NCBI RefSeq assembly: GCF_002105155.1
Contig: NW_019029003.1
Coordinates: 434,001-498,000, forward strand
DNA: 64,000 nucleotides
DNA from: Lobosporangium transversale
Taxonomy: Eukaryota
Direction of reading: 5' to 3'
Position 1 is the first letter of the stretch. Each line of letters starts with the position of its first letter. Positions 24,946 through 34,532 of the stretch are shown here, piece by piece. Under the pieces are notes generated by a model that was given only the letters and a program-made list of their open reading frames with translations, did not search any database and was not told where the DNA came from. The translations under genes were made by a program, and so were the position numbers.

Positions 24946-25566
24946 TAGTGCTCCCTGTTTGTACCAGGCTTCCCTGAAAGGAATATAAATAAAAAATAAT
25001 ATTTGGCCTGGGCCGCAAAAAGGATGTACACCATTGTATAGCCCGTTCCATTTGGTCGCGATCCCTTATATTTTTTGAATACTTTTAAATGTATTGGCAG
25101 CCAATTGACTCGCTTGTTATTGCAAGTGGTGTGACTGGTCATTAAAATTAATTTCAGTTTATTTTGTAGTCATAGGCGGGTCCGCCTCACCTAGAAACTA
25201 CCGAGTATAAAAGCCAAAGAAACTTCCTTCTTAATAAAGTCTTCAGTTTTCCCCATATGTCTTATTCTTCACCTGCAGTTCATCTTGCCATTTATCTTTT
25301 TCCCCTTTTCACAACAAGCATTTGTCTTCCGGTAACTCAGTTTGTGAGCTCACCTATAAAGCTCCCATCTTTTGACATTCTATGGTGCTGTTTGTAGTCA
25401 AGGTTATTTGACTCTATTTTCTCTTGTTAATCTTGTTGACACCCTTTGTCCTGCCTTTTCCTGATTGTGTCTATCTTTCTGTCCCTTAAGCAAAGATATT
25501 TTTTACAACAATGCCACCAAACCAATTTATTATGATTAAGATATGTGGGGTCTATATGTTGTCTAA

Positions 25567-25702
25567 ATAGTCCTCCCCATAAAAAAACACCATCTAGACC
25601 AAGCATAGAAATAAAGAGATTAGTCAAGAAAGCACTGTCAAGCTAATACTTGCAACTTTTTCAAGACGAAGGCCTTTCCCGACCTAGTCATGTTTGTAGT
25701 AG
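25567..25702 (-). ncRNA. Candidate omegaRNA scaffold / 3' end of the decayed Fanzor paralog
   Basis: Reverse complement of 25641-25702 is 56/62 identical to 31217-31278. A GC-AG intron-like segment (25653-25594) follows, then a shared block ending GGACTAT (25573-25567). Confidence 0.55.
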
Positions 25703-25879
25703 CTCATGAAAAATTTTAGACAGACAAATAGTAACAAGGGAGCAGAAGTGAGAATAGGATGTGGGTTCACACATCACATCCATGGGGCATTTATCCAAAT
25801 TTGTATCAAAATAAAACTGCAAGTTTGTCTCGGGCACCACACCATGGGCCATAGAGCTGTTAGTATGTCTGTATTATAA

Positions 25880-26615
25880 ATTTTCATGTAGCACGTGTAC
25901 TGTGAAATATGCAACTGATCATATCCTATTGTTGTTGCCGGCTTGGTGTCTTTCCTCCCAACCTATCAGTGAGCATTGGTGCAACGCATATAAGGCACAC
26001 AGGCTGTTGACGAGCCTACTTCTCACCTTCACCGTTTGACGCAGGTCAGGGTTGTGACGGTCTAGCGAAGAAAACGTAAGGGCATTAACAATACCAGGAT
26101 CGCATTAGACGGTAGTTGTGGTATTTGCAAATGAGCATCGCCCTGGCTCATGGAATATGAGTCCAACGTTTTCAAGAAGTTTGGGGCCCCTCTTCCAGCT
26201 TATGTTTGCGTAGTCTTCATCTATCAGGCCTTCACCGGCTGCCTTTAAAACACGCCGTGTTAAGGAATCCTTGAGAAAGTTTCAATTCCTGGCTGAGATC
26301 TTCTTCATCTACGTCAGACTGCTGCTGTCTCTTCGTCTGGACTGTGTCATAGGCAAGTGGATTCAGAACAAGGCCATTGGCAATATCGTTCCTTTGAGTT
26401 TGAACCGAGTTATACCTTTGTCTTGTGCCTGTAGGGGTACCTTGTCTTGATAGCCATGAAACATGCGATCTCCTTCAATGTCACAAAGAGAGCCTGTATC
26501 TAGACCTCTTTTGTTCCCTGTACACATTCAAACACTGCAGCCTTGGAAGGATTGTCGAGAGGATGTCAGTTAGGACGTGTTCAGACAGATACACATACCG
26601 AGGGGGGACGTAAGG
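25880..26615 (-). pseudogene. Decayed Fanzor-like paralog (frameshifts, stops, missing PIN and C-terminal RuvC/ZnF)
   Basis: Minus-strand translation gives PPRYVYLSEHVLTDIL, HGYQDKVPLQ..RFKLKGTI, ANGLVLNPLAYDT and ISWKRGPKLLENV..TTTV*CDPGIVNALTFSSLDRHNPDLRQTVKV. These are colinear with SPRSLCLTEACLLDIL, KGYKDVGLQ..RKLRTSF, TNGLTLTLLAYDT and INWKQRSRLLENV..TIIIGIDPGERYSMTIAKLDPRKPNEREILRI of the neighbouring gene. Confidence 0.85.
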
Positions 26616-26801: not shown

Positions 26802-26808
26802 TATAAAT
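26802..26808 (+). promoter_or_regulatory. Possible TATA box of the PIN-Fanzor gene
   Basis: TATAAAT followed by a CT-rich tract ~220 nt upstream of ATG 27029; possible 5'UTR intron 26938-27028 (GTAAAC...TTCTCTAG|ATG). Confidence 0.35.
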
Positions 26809-27028
26809 ACGTCCTGCCTCCTTCTCTTTTTCCCTCTCTCTCTCTCTCTCATTTTACAACGACATTGCTTTCGCGCTCTCACCCGTACTCTTACACCCTC
26901 ATCCCCTCACAGATCATAACTTTTTGCTTTCTTAAAGGTAAACTATCTCTACTCTAACAACTTCAGCTTCAATCTTTAGCCGCTTAAACCAACATTGCTT
27001 GCACTGTTTTACACTATACTTTCTCTAG

Positions 27029-30000
27029 ATGGGTATTAAAGGACTCTATTCATACCTTTCAAGGAGAGACCTGCCACCAAAGGAGATTGATGTACATGAG
27101 CTTGCTGCTGAACCCCATTCATCTTTTGAGCTGGATCTGCTTGGCACTTTCCACAGCGATATACATAATATCATCCTAAGGAGATTCAGCTGGCAGAGTT
27201 CTTTCACTGCCTGCGGCCATGCTATGGCTAGTATCATTCGAAAGATCTTTGGTCCTCTTGCCACAGTGACGATACACATTGATGGGCCTCGCTGCGAAGA
27301 AAAAACGCGTGCCTATAGGGACCGAGATGCTAAGCGTACAGCAGCGGATGCAAAACTCGATACGCTCATAGCCAACATGGAAACCAAGTCCAATGAAGGC
27401 AAATGGGAATCTCGAAGCCATATGATTGCCATTAAAAAGAATCTTCGACAGCTCTTCACATTCAGTCATAACGAGAAGAGGGAGCTCGCGGCGCCATTCG
27501 GTCGATACAATAACTTTGTGATTTGCCATTGTAGAAATGAGGCTGATGTGTGTATTGCCGCCAAATGTACACCAACCAGTATCGCTGTGTCTGGGGACTC
27601 TGACCTTCTCATCTATCCTTCTATAAAAAGAGTTCTTCGTCCAATCCCTCGTCGCCATCACATGTTTGCACTCTATGAGAAACAAGAGGTCCTGCAAGCC
27701 CTTGGGTTTTCAAGGAACAGTCAACTCCTGGTCTATGGCATTATATCCGATAACGATTACACCCCAAATATCCCAACCTTTGGTCTTGCTACAAATGCTG
27801 AGATTATCTCCGCGCTCACTGACACTGATGCCGAAAAGTTGACGGTATCATATGTTCGTGAGGTCCATGCCCGTAGCCGTCGAACTCCTGCAGAAGGCCA
27901 GTTTGACCATTCAATTAATGTTTTCTTTGGTAGAATCCAAACCCAGGCTTCACAGCAACCAACCGCTGAAAGATTCCTTCATTACCATGATAGAATGAGG
28001 ACTGCGATATCTGCTAGGTACCAGAATAAAAATAATCAACCTCAACCCAGGTAAGCTCCTTCAAATGAACATTTTCCAAAGCATATACAAAAAAAAAAAA
28101 AAAAAAAAAAAAAAAGTCATCTAACCCTTGACATTGTTGTTCCTAATTAGATTCTATATCCCTAAACGCGCAAAGCCGGATGCTATCGGCCTGTTTTCCC
28201 TACCCAGAAAAAGGAACTTTCCCATAAGAAATATGACCTGACCAACTGCAAACAACACGACCGTCCCGTCAGCTCCAGCCATCAAAGAAAGTCCCCCAAA
28301 AAAAAGGAAAAGGGAAAAAAAGAGGATGAGAAAGAAGAGGAGGTTAAGGAGGAAAAGAAGAAAAAAAAGAATAACAAAGGGAAGGCCAAGTATATCAGAA
28401 AGACTGATAAGACCAGGAAAGTGAAGGAGGCTACTGCCGAGGACCGACGGTTGAAGAGGGCCCACCCCACTGTTGCATTAACTCTGGGCACGTTAAAGAC
28501 ATGTGTAGTTGCCAAGCTGGACTCTACTTCCGATCCCAATCTCAATCCCGAGCAACTTGCTGCAACAATTCAAGGGCTCATTCAATCATTTATTAAAATG
28601 TTGAATGAGGCACGGATTCGAGCTTTCTGGGCCTGCGCCTTGTGGATCGATAACCTGCTTACCACTGGGCCATCCAATCCAGCTGATCTCCCACAACTCC
28701 TAGATGAAGTTCTTGATAGCAGGGACTTTATTTACGGCCTTGCTGCGTTGTTGTATCACGGAGTGATGAGTCCATTATCTAGGTATAGCAGGGAAGTGAA
28801 GAAAAAAGGCGAAGGGAACGTAGCCAAGCCGTCCCAGCTCAAAGCATACGAAAACTTCTATGCAAAGACAGGGCTTGGTCCTTTAAACCAGATCTATCCC
28901 GATTTGGTGATCAGCAGGTCGTCTCGGATGGTCATGGTCCCTGTTCAAGCAGCGCTAAGGTCTCACTATCGGAATGCGCAGGTAAATATAATATTATAAT
29001 ATTTTGAGGTTATCTTATAATATGTTTATAGAAATGTTCCTAATCATTTCTTCAATATAATGTCTAGTTTGACATAGATATTCCAGACGATGGAAGAAGT
29101 TCCATCCAATTCTTTTTTGAGCAAAATGCAACTGCCAAAAAATATCTGGATTTCCCTACGTCTGCTTTCTCGCCTCGGTCTCTTTGCCTAACGGAAGCCT
29201 GTCTCCTGGATATATTATGGTCTAACCCAACAGTTCGAGAGGAAATAGCCCAATTGTTGGAACTAAACATGAGTACCAAGGGGGCTGCAGAGGACAAGAT
29301 CCTTAACCACAAGGGGATATTGTTGCAGGAGCTGTTTTCCTTGAAAGGATACAAGGACGTTGGACTGCAATCTGATGATGGCCCTAGAAGGAAACTACGG
29401 ACATCGTTCTTTACAAACGGCCTTACCCTAACACTTCTTGCCTATGACACATCGAAGCAAAAAAGAGGTAGAGGTTCGCAAGCTGCCCAACCTTCGGATA
29501 CTCAAAGATCTCAAGCAGTCCAGGCTTCTTCAAGTGCTCAGCAGGGATCCTCGTCTTCAGGCCATGGTGCAGGTGATGGTGGTGATGATGGAGACGACGA
29601 CGGAAATGAAGATGACGATATCTTGCTGGGCATCAGCGATATTGACTTGCTGGAAGTTGATGAACCATTCTTAGATGGCGAAGAGGAAGAAGAAGCAGCT
29701 GAAGAAGGTACATCGAGCACAAATCAGCTGTTCCCGGTGAGTCCCAGTCCCCGGCGTGAGATCAACTGGAAGCAGAGATCCCGTCTCCTCGAGAATGTAG
29801 AAGTTAAATATGACACCCAGGCAGCATGCCCTCCCCCCGAAAGTACCATTATCATCGGGATCGATCCAGGCGAGAGGTACTCGATGACAATTGCAAAGTT
29901 GGATCCAAGGAAACCTAACGAACGTGAGATCCTCCGGATTTCTAGAGCGTACCTTTACAAACCATCCAAGAAGTTTCAGGGCGAGCTAGAGAGGCGAAAG

Positions 30001-31208
30001 CTTAGAAGAGGAATTACAGAGATTGAAAGCAATATTCCGTCATTCTCAAGGCCTACTTTAACACAGTATTTCGCTTATATGAGCTTGCCGCTAAATCAAG
30101 CTCAATCAAGTACTGGAGGTAGTTTCTCTGGTAGTGGGGTTGGGGCCAGTAGTAGCAGTGGATCTGGGACCAGTGACGACAATAGGGAGACTATATATAG
30201 GGCGCTTGTCGATTTCTATAATGACGGGTGGTTTGTTCGGAATAGCTGGGATATTAGAAAAGCACAGAACGGATGCGTTGATTATGTGATCAAGGCAATT
30301 CTGAAGCTTGCGGGCGGAAGCAATGGAAGAAGAAGAGATGCCAATACGAATGCGGTGATCTGTATTGGACTAGGATCATTCAAGACAAACCGAGGACAAG
30401 TATCGAAGCATGGGATATTGATGAAGAAGCTTGTTGAAAAGGTAAAAAAAAAAAAAAAAAAAAAAATTCCCTTGATCAATGACATTTAATTTTTGAGTCT
30501 TTTTTTAACGAGTATTAAATCTGGCTCGAACAGGCAAAATCTCTAGACTACCCCATTGTAGGTTGTCATGAATACTACACATCTGCCAAGTGTCCACGGC
30601 CTCACTGTGACAGTATATTGGAGAATGTTCCTTTTCGATCCAAGTACTGTCGAAATTGTAAAGCATACATTGATCGAGATGCTGTTGGTGCTGAGAACAT
30701 CGCAAGGGTCTGTGAGTCGCAGATAAGAGAGCAAAAACGACCTGCAAAATATATGCCGCCGGACGGAGGAACTCAAGGCCAAGCTTCTAGCGGTAGTGGC
30801 GGCGGTGGAGGTAGTGGTGGCAGTGGTGGTGGTAGTAGCAGATCCACAAAAAGGAAATTTTCAGATGAAGGAGGAGGAGGAGTAGAGGGATCAAGACCAC
30901 CGAAAGGGCTTTTGTTGAGTCCAGGGGTAGGAGGTAGTGGTAGTGGTAGTGGTAGTGGCAGAACCACAAAAAGAAAATTCTCGGATGATGGAGGAGGGGA
31001 AGTTGAGGGTTCGAGACCATCGAAGGAACCTTTGTTAAGCCCGGGGGAAGGAGGAGGAGGAGAAGGAGGTAGTGGTGGAAGTGGCAGTGGAGGAATCAGA
31101 AAAAGGAAATTTTCAGATGAAGGAGGAGGAGTAGAGGGATCAAGACCACCGAAAGGATCTTTGCTGGGTCCAGGAGGAGGGGGAGAGACAAGCCGGCAAC
31201 AACAGTAG
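27029..31208 (+). CDS. XPG/FEN1-like PIN nuclease fused to Fanzor/TnpB-like RuvC-zinc finger endonuclease; exons 27029-28050, 28151(or 28273)-28981, 29068-30441, 30534-31208
   Basis: PIN/FEN motifs MGIKGL, ELD, HIDG..EK, NEADVCIA, VSGDSDLL, DNDYTPNIPTFG. RuvC-I IIGIDPG (D 29863), ICIGLG, rearranged Glu CHEYYTSAKC (E 30570), ZnF CPRPHC..CRNC and RuvC-III IDRDAVGAENI (D 30678). Introns 2 and 3 splice in frame; the intron 1 junction has a frame problem. Confidence 0.85.
30845..31180 (+). repeat. Three imperfect ~120-130-nt coding repeats (KRKFSDEGGG(G)VEGSRPPKG.LLSPG + GS linker)
   Basis: Copies begin near 30848, 30968 and 31100. Confidence 0.9.
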
Positions 31209-31216
31209 GACACAAT

Positions 31217-31390
31217 CTACTACAAACATGACTAGGTCCAGAAAGGCCTTCGTCTTAAAAAAATTGTAAGTATTGGCTCGATATACTTTTTTTTCTTGGT
31301 TAATTTATTTATTTATTTATTTCTGTGTTCTAATACATTTCTTCTTTTTACAATAGATGGAATGTCTCGTTTTTTAATGGGACGGACTAT
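31217..31390 (+). ncRNA. Candidate omegaRNA scaffold downstream of the PIN-Fanzor gene
   Basis: Begins 9 nt after the stop codon. 62-nt block 90% identical to the paralog's 3' element, with hairpin GAC-T-AGGTC-[CAGAAA]-GGCCT-TC-GTC. Intron-like segment 31266-31356; shared block ending GGACTAT at 31390. Confidence 0.6.
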
Positions 31391-32110
31391 ATGCAAAGCT
31401 ATCCTCTGATAACAGTATCTTCTGAAAATAACTGGACAACCACAGCCAGTTCATTTGTTATTCAGATGTATCTAAGCTATACTATTTAATCGGGGGCGAC
31501 TTTGGATTTCGTCTCCATAAAAGAATTATGAAAGTCACCCCACCCACCAGGCTGTAGATCGCATTCGAGATGATCAAATTCATTGTGTGGAGACTACTGT
31601 TTTTTTAGTGTATCAATCCAAGCAGGCGGCAGCTACACAAGATTTCCATCGGAAGCTTGGTACTCTCTCCATCAACCTTCGATGTGTCTCTTTTTGATGC
31701 TAGAAAATAGTGAGGGTCTAAATATGATCACCATACACATTTACAGTTGGTTAGTACCATAACGTATAGTCAAACACCCAGCCAATCTATTTACACAGCA
31801 GAAAACAGGATATTACCCCATTCATTCTTCTCTTGAGATTTTCGTCTGATGACTCTAGAAAAATGAAAGAGCGTGTTAATGGCAAGGATATTCACATTGT
31901 GCTCAAATCAAGGAATATATTGGTGTAAGAAGATGTAAACGCCAGTCAGTGGAGAGCTAGAGCATGTATGCGAAATAGGCTCAAGCAGAAAAAATAACAA
32001 ATTCATCAATGTAAACAAGTCAAATAAAAAATAAAAAATAAAAAATAAAAAATAAAAAATGTATCTTTAAGCAAAAAGGCTCGCGAGAGGACAAAAAAGC
32101 AACAGTGAAA

Positions 32111-34532
32111 GTCGGGGCATGGGCATAGACCATGGGTCCCTATACCATCCTAGGGCCAGATCCCAAAGGGTTTTAAAAGATTTAGCAAACTTAAGAAATT
32201 CAACCAACGTTCTGAATTCTCGCCACGGGCCAAATGCTTGAGCTTTGGAACGAGATGAAAGAGGAACAATCTTTCGAATACAGACGGATCCAATGGGTGT
32301 CGGTAAGAGCTTCTCTCCTATTTTTTGACAGCAAGAGCATATGCTAAAGATGGCATACCCTCTATATCGCAGATGCAGGAGAGTTGGTTCGGTCTGATGA
32401 AGATACTGAGTTTAAGTTGATTCAACGTTTCCTGGTGCTCGATGGCGAAATTTTGATTTCCGACGATTAGAAAAGGCGTGCTAATGCCCATCTTAGGTCC
32501 CGGGGCTCAGCCGCTAAAGCAATGTTTGAGAAAATCCTCATGCAGAGGTCACAAGGGCGTAGGGGCCTTACGGTTGTCGATGGACATGGCAGGCTTTTCC
32601 AACCCGCTCCCCCAATGCCAAAGAAATATACATATCTAAGCTATCCCTGGGAGGACTTGCCATTTGCTCTGATGACAAATCTGGATCTTGTTTGATCCTC
32701 ACGGCAAACCCGATGTATTTTTTATGCTCTTTCGATTTTACTGCGACATAGAAAAACAGAGAAAAATAAAGTTATTGTACAAATTTGTACAATAAACGGT
32801 TGGATAGTATATTTGTCGTCATCCTTGCATGGTCCGTGCGTGACATAGTCTGTGCAAGAGGTTCTTTAAAAAAAACTCATAAAATGAGCTAATTCCATGG
32901 TTTATTGATGATTCTTTTTTGACTAATGAATGTTTGGCAGATTAATATCGACTCAGTGGAGTTCTTTCACGCAGGCTGGCTCGTTGTAGGGCGGAGTAAA
33001 CTTCACTGCTCTGAAATCAAGAATGTGGAAAATATTCAATGGACTTAAGACTTTGTATTATCCCAGTTATTATCTCTGTTTTCTTTTTCTTAGTGGTGCT
33101 TCTTGGCGCTATGGGTTATCCTGACCCTACCGAAATGTTAAGGAAGGCATCTTAATACTGTATATGTTGTTGAAGGGCACCTCAATCTCTGAGATGAATG
33201 TATTTTGCCCAAGAGGTCATTTCATGACGTTATTACAGACTTTTTTGACAGGGAAACGCTTATTTTAGATTAAAAATTAACCTCATGTGTTAGCAACATG
33301 TTCTCAAGTATAACCTTTCGTCTGCTAATGTCGCGGTCCATTAATCCAGAGGAGTTTAAGTGTAATACACTTCACATAACCATGATAGCCGAGTGGCATA
33401 CCTTATTGCGGACGAAGCTATTATGTACTCATACAAACTCAAAAAGTCTGGGCTCCGCATTCAGGTGTGCTGTGGCATAAATAGTATGATATTGTTTATA
33501 TCTCAACCCGCGAATGCCACGATTTCAATGACGAAGTCATGCTCTTCAAGATGGCTATTGAGAAGAATATCCGTAACCTTGATTGCATTACTCTGGATGG
33601 AGGCTATGCACAATTTCTTCACGGCATCGTTGAAAAGAGCGGCTAATTAAATTGTCGAATTTCTGTTGTGCAATCTGGAAGCTGAGAGGAATAGTATTGA
33701 CAGACCAGAAAAAAAGCTCAACGAAATGATCGGAGGCTTTCATTCCGAGATAGAAAGTTGCTTTGGAGAGATGCGGAGTGCCTTCACAAAGTTTAGTCAT
33801 ACTGTGGTAAAGAGGATATCTGATATAAGCGCTTTCTTACTGCAATTCAAGCTATGCTGTTTACTCCTTAATATCAAACGCATGGTCGCCTTGTGGAATG
33901 TAACAGCAGAGCCGCATCAAAGCTTCTGGATGTAAGAGAGCTTCGACTATCCAGACGGCACTGATGCAAACGCTACTCAAAAACCTTTTTCTCCAAGTAA
34001 CTCTATCAAAATCAAAGACACTCATAGTATTCATAGCCCTCAGGATTATTCCTAGATCTCACTATCGCTACCACCACTACTATTGCTACTGTCCAAAGTG
34101 TCGGCAACGACCATGAGTTGAGCGATGATAGCACTGACGACATTTTCGAAATTAAAAAGATATTAGAATATTAGACCACCGAGGGAAAGGGGATGAAATA
34201 AAATATCATGCTCATTGGGAGAGATACAATAAACGTGAAGCTACAAGGGTACCGCTCAGAGACTTTAAACAAACTCGCACTATTAATGATTACTGGAACT
34301 CTAGGTGCACATTTTAACTAAAATATATATAATTTTAAATGTTTATACTTCTCTAGGTAGACTTCCGAAGTTGGAATTGATCCAGTCGCCCTGATAAATC
34401 CCCTTGGGACTTTACAACACTTTTAGAAAAGAAATGGTCAAACCGAAAAATGTGTAATATCAGCCTGGCATGGACTAAACCCTATGTTTTAATGGGGCTA
34501 TAGCATTTGTGCCCAATGCATGGCGTCCCGAC
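32111..34532 (+). mobile_element. Decayed DNA transposon (PIF/Harbinger-like DDE_Tnp_4 transposase with C-terminal chromodomain), boundaries tentative
   Basis: Contains the transposase relic; patchy inverted similarity between 32111-32205 (GTCGGG..GCATGGGCA..TCCCAAAGGGTTTTA) and the reverse complement of 34356-34532. Confidence 0.5.
33100..34317 (+). pseudogene. DDE-superfamily (Harbinger-like) transposase plus chromodomain pseudogene
   Basis: Across frames: HDSRVAY, YSYKLKKSGLRIQV, CHDFNDEVML, DCITLDGGYAQF, LNEMIGGFHSEIESCFGEM, FKLCCLLLNIKR. Then FEIKKILEY*..KYHAHWERYNKREATRVP..DF..INDYW (chromodomain). Multiple stops and frameshifts. Confidence 0.75.

Follow-up and report, generated by a model that had tools for sequence, protein, structure and literature searches.

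The 3' tail of a Fanzor1 gene in the soil fungus Lobosporangium transversale raises the question of whether a guide-RNA scaffold can be split by a spliceosomal intron. The gene lies on the + strand of the 64,000-nt stretch of contig NW_019029003.1 that was analysed here (hereafter the window), and a second copy is present on the minus strand. The initial annotation of this DNA had proposed that a candidate omegaRNA is interrupted by an intron in both copies and is matured by splicing. We examined this proposal using gene structure, assembled RNA contigs, predicted folds and comparison with published systems, the last as described in the accessible parts of the papers cited.

Fanzor1 copies in the window and their relatives

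The XPG/FEN1-fused Fanzor1 gene of the + copy spans 27029..31208 (+), with coding exons at 27029-28050, 28151-28981, 29068-30441 and 30534-31208. Introns 28051-28150 and 28982-29067 were skipped in RNA contigs, whilst the intron at 30442-30533 (+) was inferred from frame and motifs. A 5' UTR intron at 26938..27028 (+), of the GT..AG type and with its AG directly before the start ATG, was also apparent as an RNA joint (26935->27027), and a TATA-like TATAAA lies upstream of it at 26802-26807 (+). This intron and the tail intron described below are each 91 nt long and share the same acceptor junction text, TAG|ATGG (26938-27031, +, for the 5' UTR intron). An intact reading frame is absent from the window's + copy: near 28150-28200 a frameshift leaves frame 0 with a stop at codon 370 and frame 2 open from 345 to 1299, and gene model P0004 reads through this region.

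The + copy retains all three residues of the D-E-D triad. These are the RuvC-I aspartate in GIDPG (29863..29865, +), the DPG motif of which is a signature of Fanzors (PMC10711439), an alternative RuvC-II glutamate in HEYYTS (30570..30572, +) immediately ahead of the zinc finger, which corresponds to the rearranged glutamate site described for Fanzors (PMC10530073), and the RuvC-III aspartate in DRD..GA.NI (30678..30680, +; PF07282, E 7e-07). An XPG/FEN1-like nuclease domain (27029-28050, +) precedes the Fanzor1 portion and recurs in long Mortierellaceae homologs. From sequence alone, this N-terminal domain matched XPG at E 5e-04, and with a family profile it matched Rad2, FEN1 and Exo1 at E values down to 9e-13. 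We found no paper linking Fanzor with XPG or with Mortierella, and no transposase was seen in the Fanzor1 element. In the C-terminus (30798-31183, +), a Gly/Ser-rich unit of 120-130 bp occurs three times; it includes a KRK motif, a possible nuclear localisation signal, and is present once in the RNA contig and in most named relatives.

About 12 near-identical proteins in 4 clusters were identified in L. transversale, with 93-100% identity over matched pieces, and one of these may be the product of the window's own gene. Fold comparison utilized a model (pLDDT 75.6) of P0010 (XP_021884711.1), which is 93-99% identical over matched pieces and is labelled FZ1 in the supplement of PMC10432273. The best 7 PDB fold matches of this model were SpuFz1, PpFz1 and GtFz1 (E 9e-12 to 2e-07), with TM-scores of only 0.42-0.58 by target. 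Judged by sequence and modelled fold, the + copy gene encodes a Fanzor1, with RNA-guided, TAM-dependent DNA cleavage as its putative activity. There were 483 related protein clusters at E up to 0.001, and the 10 of these whose taxa were looked up belonged to Lobosporangium, Entomortierella, Mortierella, Benniella and Actinomortierella. Protein word searches returned 0/5822 candidates matching the RuvC-I part among long proteins and 0/21 for the open frame of the tail.

On the opposite strand, tblastn identified a decayed remnant of a second Fanzor1 subfamily at 26024..26384 (-; RuvC-I region, 30% identity), which by eye resembles ORZ22893.1, a protein that the supplement of PMC10432273 likewise lists as FZ1. 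Damage is evident in both window copies. About 200 bp are inserted (25703-25920, -) between the stop-codon region and the leader of the minus copy's first stem-loop (SL1), and the last codons (SRQQQ-stop) are common to both subfamilies although their RuvC-I regions are 30% identical. Since the minus tail is much closer to the + copy than its protein is, an exchange of 3' ends between the two subfamilies is possible on these alignments.

A tail intron removed in RNA

After the stop codon, the + copy carries GTAAGT at 31266, CTAAT at 31330 and an AG ending at 31356, followed by ATGG...GGACTAT. The minus copy carries GCAAGT at 25653, CTAAT and a CTAG ending at 25594, followed by the same ATGG...GGACTAT pattern. 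The initial annotation had placed these donor, branch and acceptor motifs at the same coordinates, with segments of 91 and 60 nt between the exons, and the sequence bore this out. Sets of donor, branch and acceptor motifs number 27 in the window over both strands, and motifs alone therefore prove little.

RNA evidence came from the assembled contigs of one public run from one study, whose RNA status was guessed by a tool; such contigs give neither strand, transcript ends nor small RNA. The run behaves as RNA, skipping three further GT..AG introns of the Fanzor1 gene, and leaves 32168-33000 without coverage. A single 519-nt contig of depth 241.5 joins 31265->31357 across GT..AG, with 34 nt on the short side of the joint, and ends at 31390. 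The junction anticipated for the + copy (31265|31357) was thus found in this single contig, and defines a GT-AG spliceosomal intron of 91 nt at 31266..31356 (+), situated in the linker between SL1 and a predicted second stem-loop (SL2), its junction 57 nt past the stop codon. The contig also carries the end of the Fanzor1 coding sequence. It differs slightly from the window and may derive from any near-identical copy. What was seen is a spliced mRNA 3' UTR, and its maturation into a guide RNA is what we infer; the + type tail intron itself is real and is precisely removed in RNA.

Other forms of the tail were present in the same run. Among the 8 of 11 pieces listed, 1 was spliced, 1 was uninformative and 5 contained intron sequence (depths 433, 54.1, 25.6, 16.8 and 8.85), with small indels in exon 2 accompanying the contigs at depths 433 and 54.1. 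The one further piece (depth 102.8; window 31216-31261) runs from exon 1 straight into a branch- or pyrimidine-like stretch lacking the donor, and this paralog reflects either a genomic donor deletion or an alternative upstream acceptor.

In the minus copy, scaffold exon 1 lies at 25654..25702 (-; SL1 25689-25665), a GC-AG intron-like segment of 60 nt, recognized by its motifs, at 25594..25653 (-), and exon 2 at 25567..25593 (-). The contig across this tail (25490-26162, depth 16.8) is unspliced and has GT in place of GC at the minus donor (25652). It starts at 25490, the end of a + strand GT..AG intron across which the adjacent contig joins (25330->25490), and so probably belongs to a + strand (antisense) transcript. 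A spliced + strand transcript (25330-26162; intron about 25332-25490) thus probably runs antisense through the minus tail. Of the proposed spliceosomal introns in both copies, the one in the + copy was upheld by its RNA joint and the one in the minus copy was not seen spliced, the predicted junction 25654|25593 being covered only by this unspliced, probably antisense contig.

Alignment of the two tails revealed that exon 1 is identical at 45/49 positions, with loop and linker carrying 2 changes each. The introns match at 44/60 aligned columns, plus 31 gap columns, contrary to the earlier statement that similarity fades just after the donor. Exon 1 is more conserved than the intron (45/49 vs 44/60, Fisher p 0.014) and the SL1 pairs are unchanged. 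Because the introns can be aligned at 44/60 columns, they are to be regarded on sequence grounds as homologous, one intron inherited twice, and their shared motifs are therefore largely inherited rather than independent. Conservation of the donor, branch and acceptor positions, as originally claimed, holds for the branch by distance, CTAAT lying 24 nt (+) and 27 nt (minus) from the intron end by the same measure, and fails by homology, since the minus CTAAT aligns to a TTAAT near 31296 in the + copy, after a 3' deletion. The shortened minus intron nevertheless keeps donor, branch and acceptor at usable distances.

Predicted scaffold and putative right end of the element

Scaffold exon 1 of the + copy (31217..31265, +) comprises a conserved 5' leader, the predicted SL1 at 31230-31254 (8 bp) and an 11-nt A-rich linker at 31255-31265. 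Exon 2 (31357..31390, +) contains the predicted SL2 and the putative right end of the element, and is closed from AUGG, its first bases, to CUAU, its last. The 5' boundaries of the folded RNAs (31217 and 31227; 25702) were chosen by us. The spliced 73-nt RNA from 31227 was predicted to form SL1, the 11-nt linker and SL2 up to the element end, with the first four bases past the acceptor pairing with the last four of the element. The same two-stem structure was predicted for the spliced 66-nt minus form, with a shortened SL2 closed AUGG to CUAU, and SL1, a short linker and a terminal stem before the guide are thus predicted for the spliced form of both copies.

Compared with shuffled sequences, stability resided in the exons. 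In the + copy these gave z -2.38 (31227-31265) and z -4.12 (31357..31390; 0/200 shuffles), and in the minus copy z -2.07 for exon 1 and z -2.73 (3/200 shuffles) for exon 2. The introns fold no better than shuffles (z -0.07 plus, +0.51 minus), the antisense strand of the tail gave z -0.70, and folding of the whole spliced RNAs from 31217 and 25702 was only modest (z -2.18 for the plus form and -0.11 for the minus form). With intron retention, the linker grows by 91 nt, from 11 to 102 nt, the pairing probability of the four basal pairs of SL2 falls from about 0.95 to 0.03 and that of SL1 from about 0.9 to 0.6, and the upper 8 SL2 pairs stay at 0.8-0.98. Folding of spliced and unspliced forms, suggested at the outset as a check, thereby indicated that the intron would weaken SL1 and the basal part of SL2. 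By eye, an extended helix seemed to bridge the splice junction, an idea rejected on the prediction (0.1 expected pairs); with no helix spanning the junction, both stems can therefore form without splicing. Exon 2 was also considered as the start of a downstream protein gene and rejected, no frame staying open beyond 17 codons.

The SL1 motif was found at 2 sites in the window, vs 0.00 expected (100 shuffles). Across 100 intron-like GT..AG candidates in the window, only 31266..31356 is followed by 34 nt that fold at or below -10.7 and close end to end, thresholds that were taken from the tail intron itself. Covariation could draw on two sequences only; the SL1 stems are invariant and no compensatory base change was seen. 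In Rfam no family matched the tail, with one chance lncRNA match at E 1.9. A metagenome scan with a 19-nt motif returned 2 loci, both motif-only matches with unrelated flanks and no Fanzor, which we took as chance; two prokaryote genome scans gave 0 and 0 matches, and viral scans with the SL1 pattern gave 0. Viral loci L003 and L004 had distant TnpB-like zinc-finger matches without the tail and were discarded. The metagenome, prokaryote and viral scans yielded no further loci, and no intronless relative was found.

A conserved non-coding region follows the stop codon, abuts the right end and gives way to a variable flank. Paralog contigs match as far as 31390 or 31392 and then continue into different flanks, and the minus copy diverges from the + copy at the same point (GGACTAT, 31390), beyond which the two flanks show 28 matches, 28 mismatches and 8 gap columns. 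The sequences thus diverge at 31390 as at a boundary between scaffold and guide; the same match-then-diverge pattern defined scaffold and guide for SpuFz1 (PMC10432273). By analogy with SpuFz1, the flanking DNA at 31391..31405 (+), which differs among copies, is a putative guide of corresponding length. No inverted match to the last 12-22 nt of the + copy was found upstream of the gene within 20-36 kb, and the left end may have been lost or may differ from the right one. Motifs of the form ATGG...CTAT, like the right end and without SL1, are present at 34462-34501 (+; motif 34492), where the motif comes after a GC-rich hairpin, and at 25040-25060 (-; motif 25051); these are possibly ends of other elements. 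Decayed open-frame pieces at 33400-34250 (+) resemble, by eye, a DDE transposase (LDGGY) and a chromodomain.

The tail may extend beyond the genus. The Entomortierella lignicola gene model P0022 runs past its matching C-terminus into a 10-residue stretch that ranks 1/65,493 windows (164 proteins) against the translated SL1-linker of either copy. Its ungapped scores were 29 and 25, the next best being 24 and 20, in a 10-residue test chosen after the match had been noticed. When the translated tails were aligned locally, with gaps, to the C-terminal 80 residues of the 164 proteins, P0022 fell outside the top 14. These results hint at SL1 in a second genus, with nothing firm on the intron there.

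A proposed two-exon guide scaffold and alternative readings

The closest published parallels are the fungal Fanzor1 systems SpuFz1 and PpFz1, in which, as proposed for L. transversale, the RNA lies after the stop codon and before the right end and consists of an SL1-linker-SL2 scaffold of about 75 nt followed by a variable flank. The SpuFz1 scaffold has 75 nt, two stems and a 6-nt linker contacting RuvC (PMC10432273). SL1 has 7 bp in all three Fz1 structures, one further stem is present in SpuFz1 and PpFz1, the region beyond SL1 is variable, and the GtFz1 RNA measures 150 nt (PMC11423790). Fz1 RNAs terminate with a stem rather than a pseudoknot (PMC10711439), and by eye the SpuFz1 RNA (PMC11423790 Table S3) has ACTA at about its scaffold end, as does L. 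transversale. Unlike SpuFz1 and PpFz1, the L. transversale element has a spliceosomal intron in the predicted linker and an XPG/FEN1 domain at the N-terminus of its protein, and yielded no terminal inverted repeat; the word 'intron' occurs 0 times in the main texts of PMC10432273 and PMC11423790.

Other systems share individual features. The Chlamydomonas CrFNuc fRNA belongs to an intron-containing Fanzor1 gene and places its guide RNA in the mRNA 3' UTR, whereas the introns discussed in the accessible text concern Fanzor genes, with none described inside the guide scaffold (PMC10530073). IStron omegaRNAs combine splicing and guide-RNA function on one transposon transcript (PMC10690162); in L. 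transversale, by contrast, the intron is spliceosomal and lies inside the scaffold, such that its removal would build the guide. TnpB omegaRNAs are likewise cut from the mRNA of their own nuclease, although 5' processing is performed by TnpB itself, without a splicing step (PMC10278001). Fungal U3 snoRNAs are structured non-coding RNAs matured by GT-AG or GC-AG splicing, with introns of mean 92 nt and a branch 6-36 nt from the acceptor, yet they are host housekeeping RNAs, not transposon guides, and the part of the survey available to us reports that such introns were not found in early-branching fungi (PMC5832005). Spliceosomal introns in non-coding RNAs, as in fungal U3, and the status of P0010 as an Fz1 are known. 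No description of an intron inside a Fanzor guide RNA was found in the mostly open-access literature covered, and within that scope the combination of spliceosomal intron and Fanzor guide scaffold appears new.

We consider the tail to be probably a split Fanzor1 omegaRNA. With somewhat better than even confidence, and on the strength of fold models and analogy, we propose that it encodes a two-exon guide scaffold in which splicing at 31265|31357 would join SL1 to SL2 as an RNA of roughly 73-83 nt bound by the nuclease. Central to this proposal is that the modelled spliced RNA would fit the Fz1 RNA plan, whereas the unspliced RNA would have a 102-nt linker. The family's transcript, seen in RNA to carry the coding end with the spliced tail, would supply a precursor in which the copies match up to GGACTAT at 31390 and diverge thereafter. 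It is predicted to fold into SL1, the 11-nt linker and an SL2 reaching from the first post-acceptor base to the last base of the element. By analogy with SpuFz1 and PpFz1, the protein would bind SL1, linker and SL2 base, both RNA ends would be trimmed, and the guide would come from about 15 nt of flank. The nuclease might then cut DNA matching this flank, for example an empty insertion site. The unspliced RNA would load poorly, given its longer linker and weakened SL2 base. The earlier idea of a guide scaffold matured by splicing thus stands as regards splicing of the + tail and its place, size and predicted two-stem shape, with maturation into a guide as the probable next step.

Three other readings merit consideration. 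It is possible, though we think it unlikely, that the tail is an omegaRNA in which the intron is a tolerated passenger, with both forms working or the unspliced form being loaded. A passenger would be tolerable given that each hairpin forms locally and the linker is free to loop out, and the absence of a cross-junction helix, the persistence of the upper 8 SL2 pairs, the frequency of intron-holding paralog contigs and the 75 to 150 nt range of described Fz1 RNAs all point this way. Against it, the SpuFz1 linker contacts RuvC and known differences in length are due to additional or lengthened stems, the SL2 base is lost in the unspliced model, and the minus intron, though shortened, has kept its splice motifs at usable distances. 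A rather improbable reading is that the tail is a DNA-level transposon end with subterminal hairpins, lying within a conventional mRNA 3' UTR that has a conventional intron, the guide being elsewhere or lost. Here the spliced contig would simply be a piece of mRNA with coding sequence, and contig 31361-31701, which extends 311 nt into the flank of the + copy, the hairpin-plus-CTAT motifs without SL1 at 34492 (+) and 25051 (-) and the lack of an Rfam match would fit; however, in the Fanzors described in PMC10530073 and PMC10432273 the RNA arises from just this place, after the stop codon and before the right end, the catalytic triad is intact, and it is the exons, not the intron, that are conserved and structured, on the sense strand.

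The least likely alternative, to which we assign little weight, is that the intron mainly controls the mRNA, with a junction past the stop triggering exon-junction-dependent decay and limiting nuclease output, whatever the consequence for the guide. Nonsense-mediated decay (NMD) follows from a junction more than 50-55 nt after the stop, and the tail junction lies 57 nt beyond it. NMD linked to the exon-junction complex is reported to work in Neurospora (PMC6173133). Yet coverage of the spliced mRNA contig is good (241.5, all copies together), and control of the mRNA would leave the position of the acceptor exactly at the base of SL2 without explanation.

Returning to the two-exon scaffold, an extended version is conceivable, albeit speculative and held at low confidence. 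In such a splice-gated OMEGA system, the spliceosome would assemble the scaffold from two 3' UTR exons and intron retention would act as an off-switch, whilst junction-linked decay would strip the message and leave the protein-protected guide. This arrangement may hold across Mortierellaceae XPG-Fanzor1 elements.

The making of eukaryotic Fanzor guide RNAs from their transcripts is little described in the literature accessible to us. If the two-exon reading is correct, building the scaffold by the spliceosome would add to an RNA-guided system of bacterial origin a step specific to eukaryotes, and would make the element subject to splicing control by its host. For such Fanzors, genomic DNA would predict the wrong guides, and expression of the native locus in E. 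coli, in cell-free systems or in budding yeast, which has strict branch-site needs, would give wrong guides. The spliced 73-83 nt design would offer a direct test for a large Mortierellaceae family (483 clusters, E up to 0.001).
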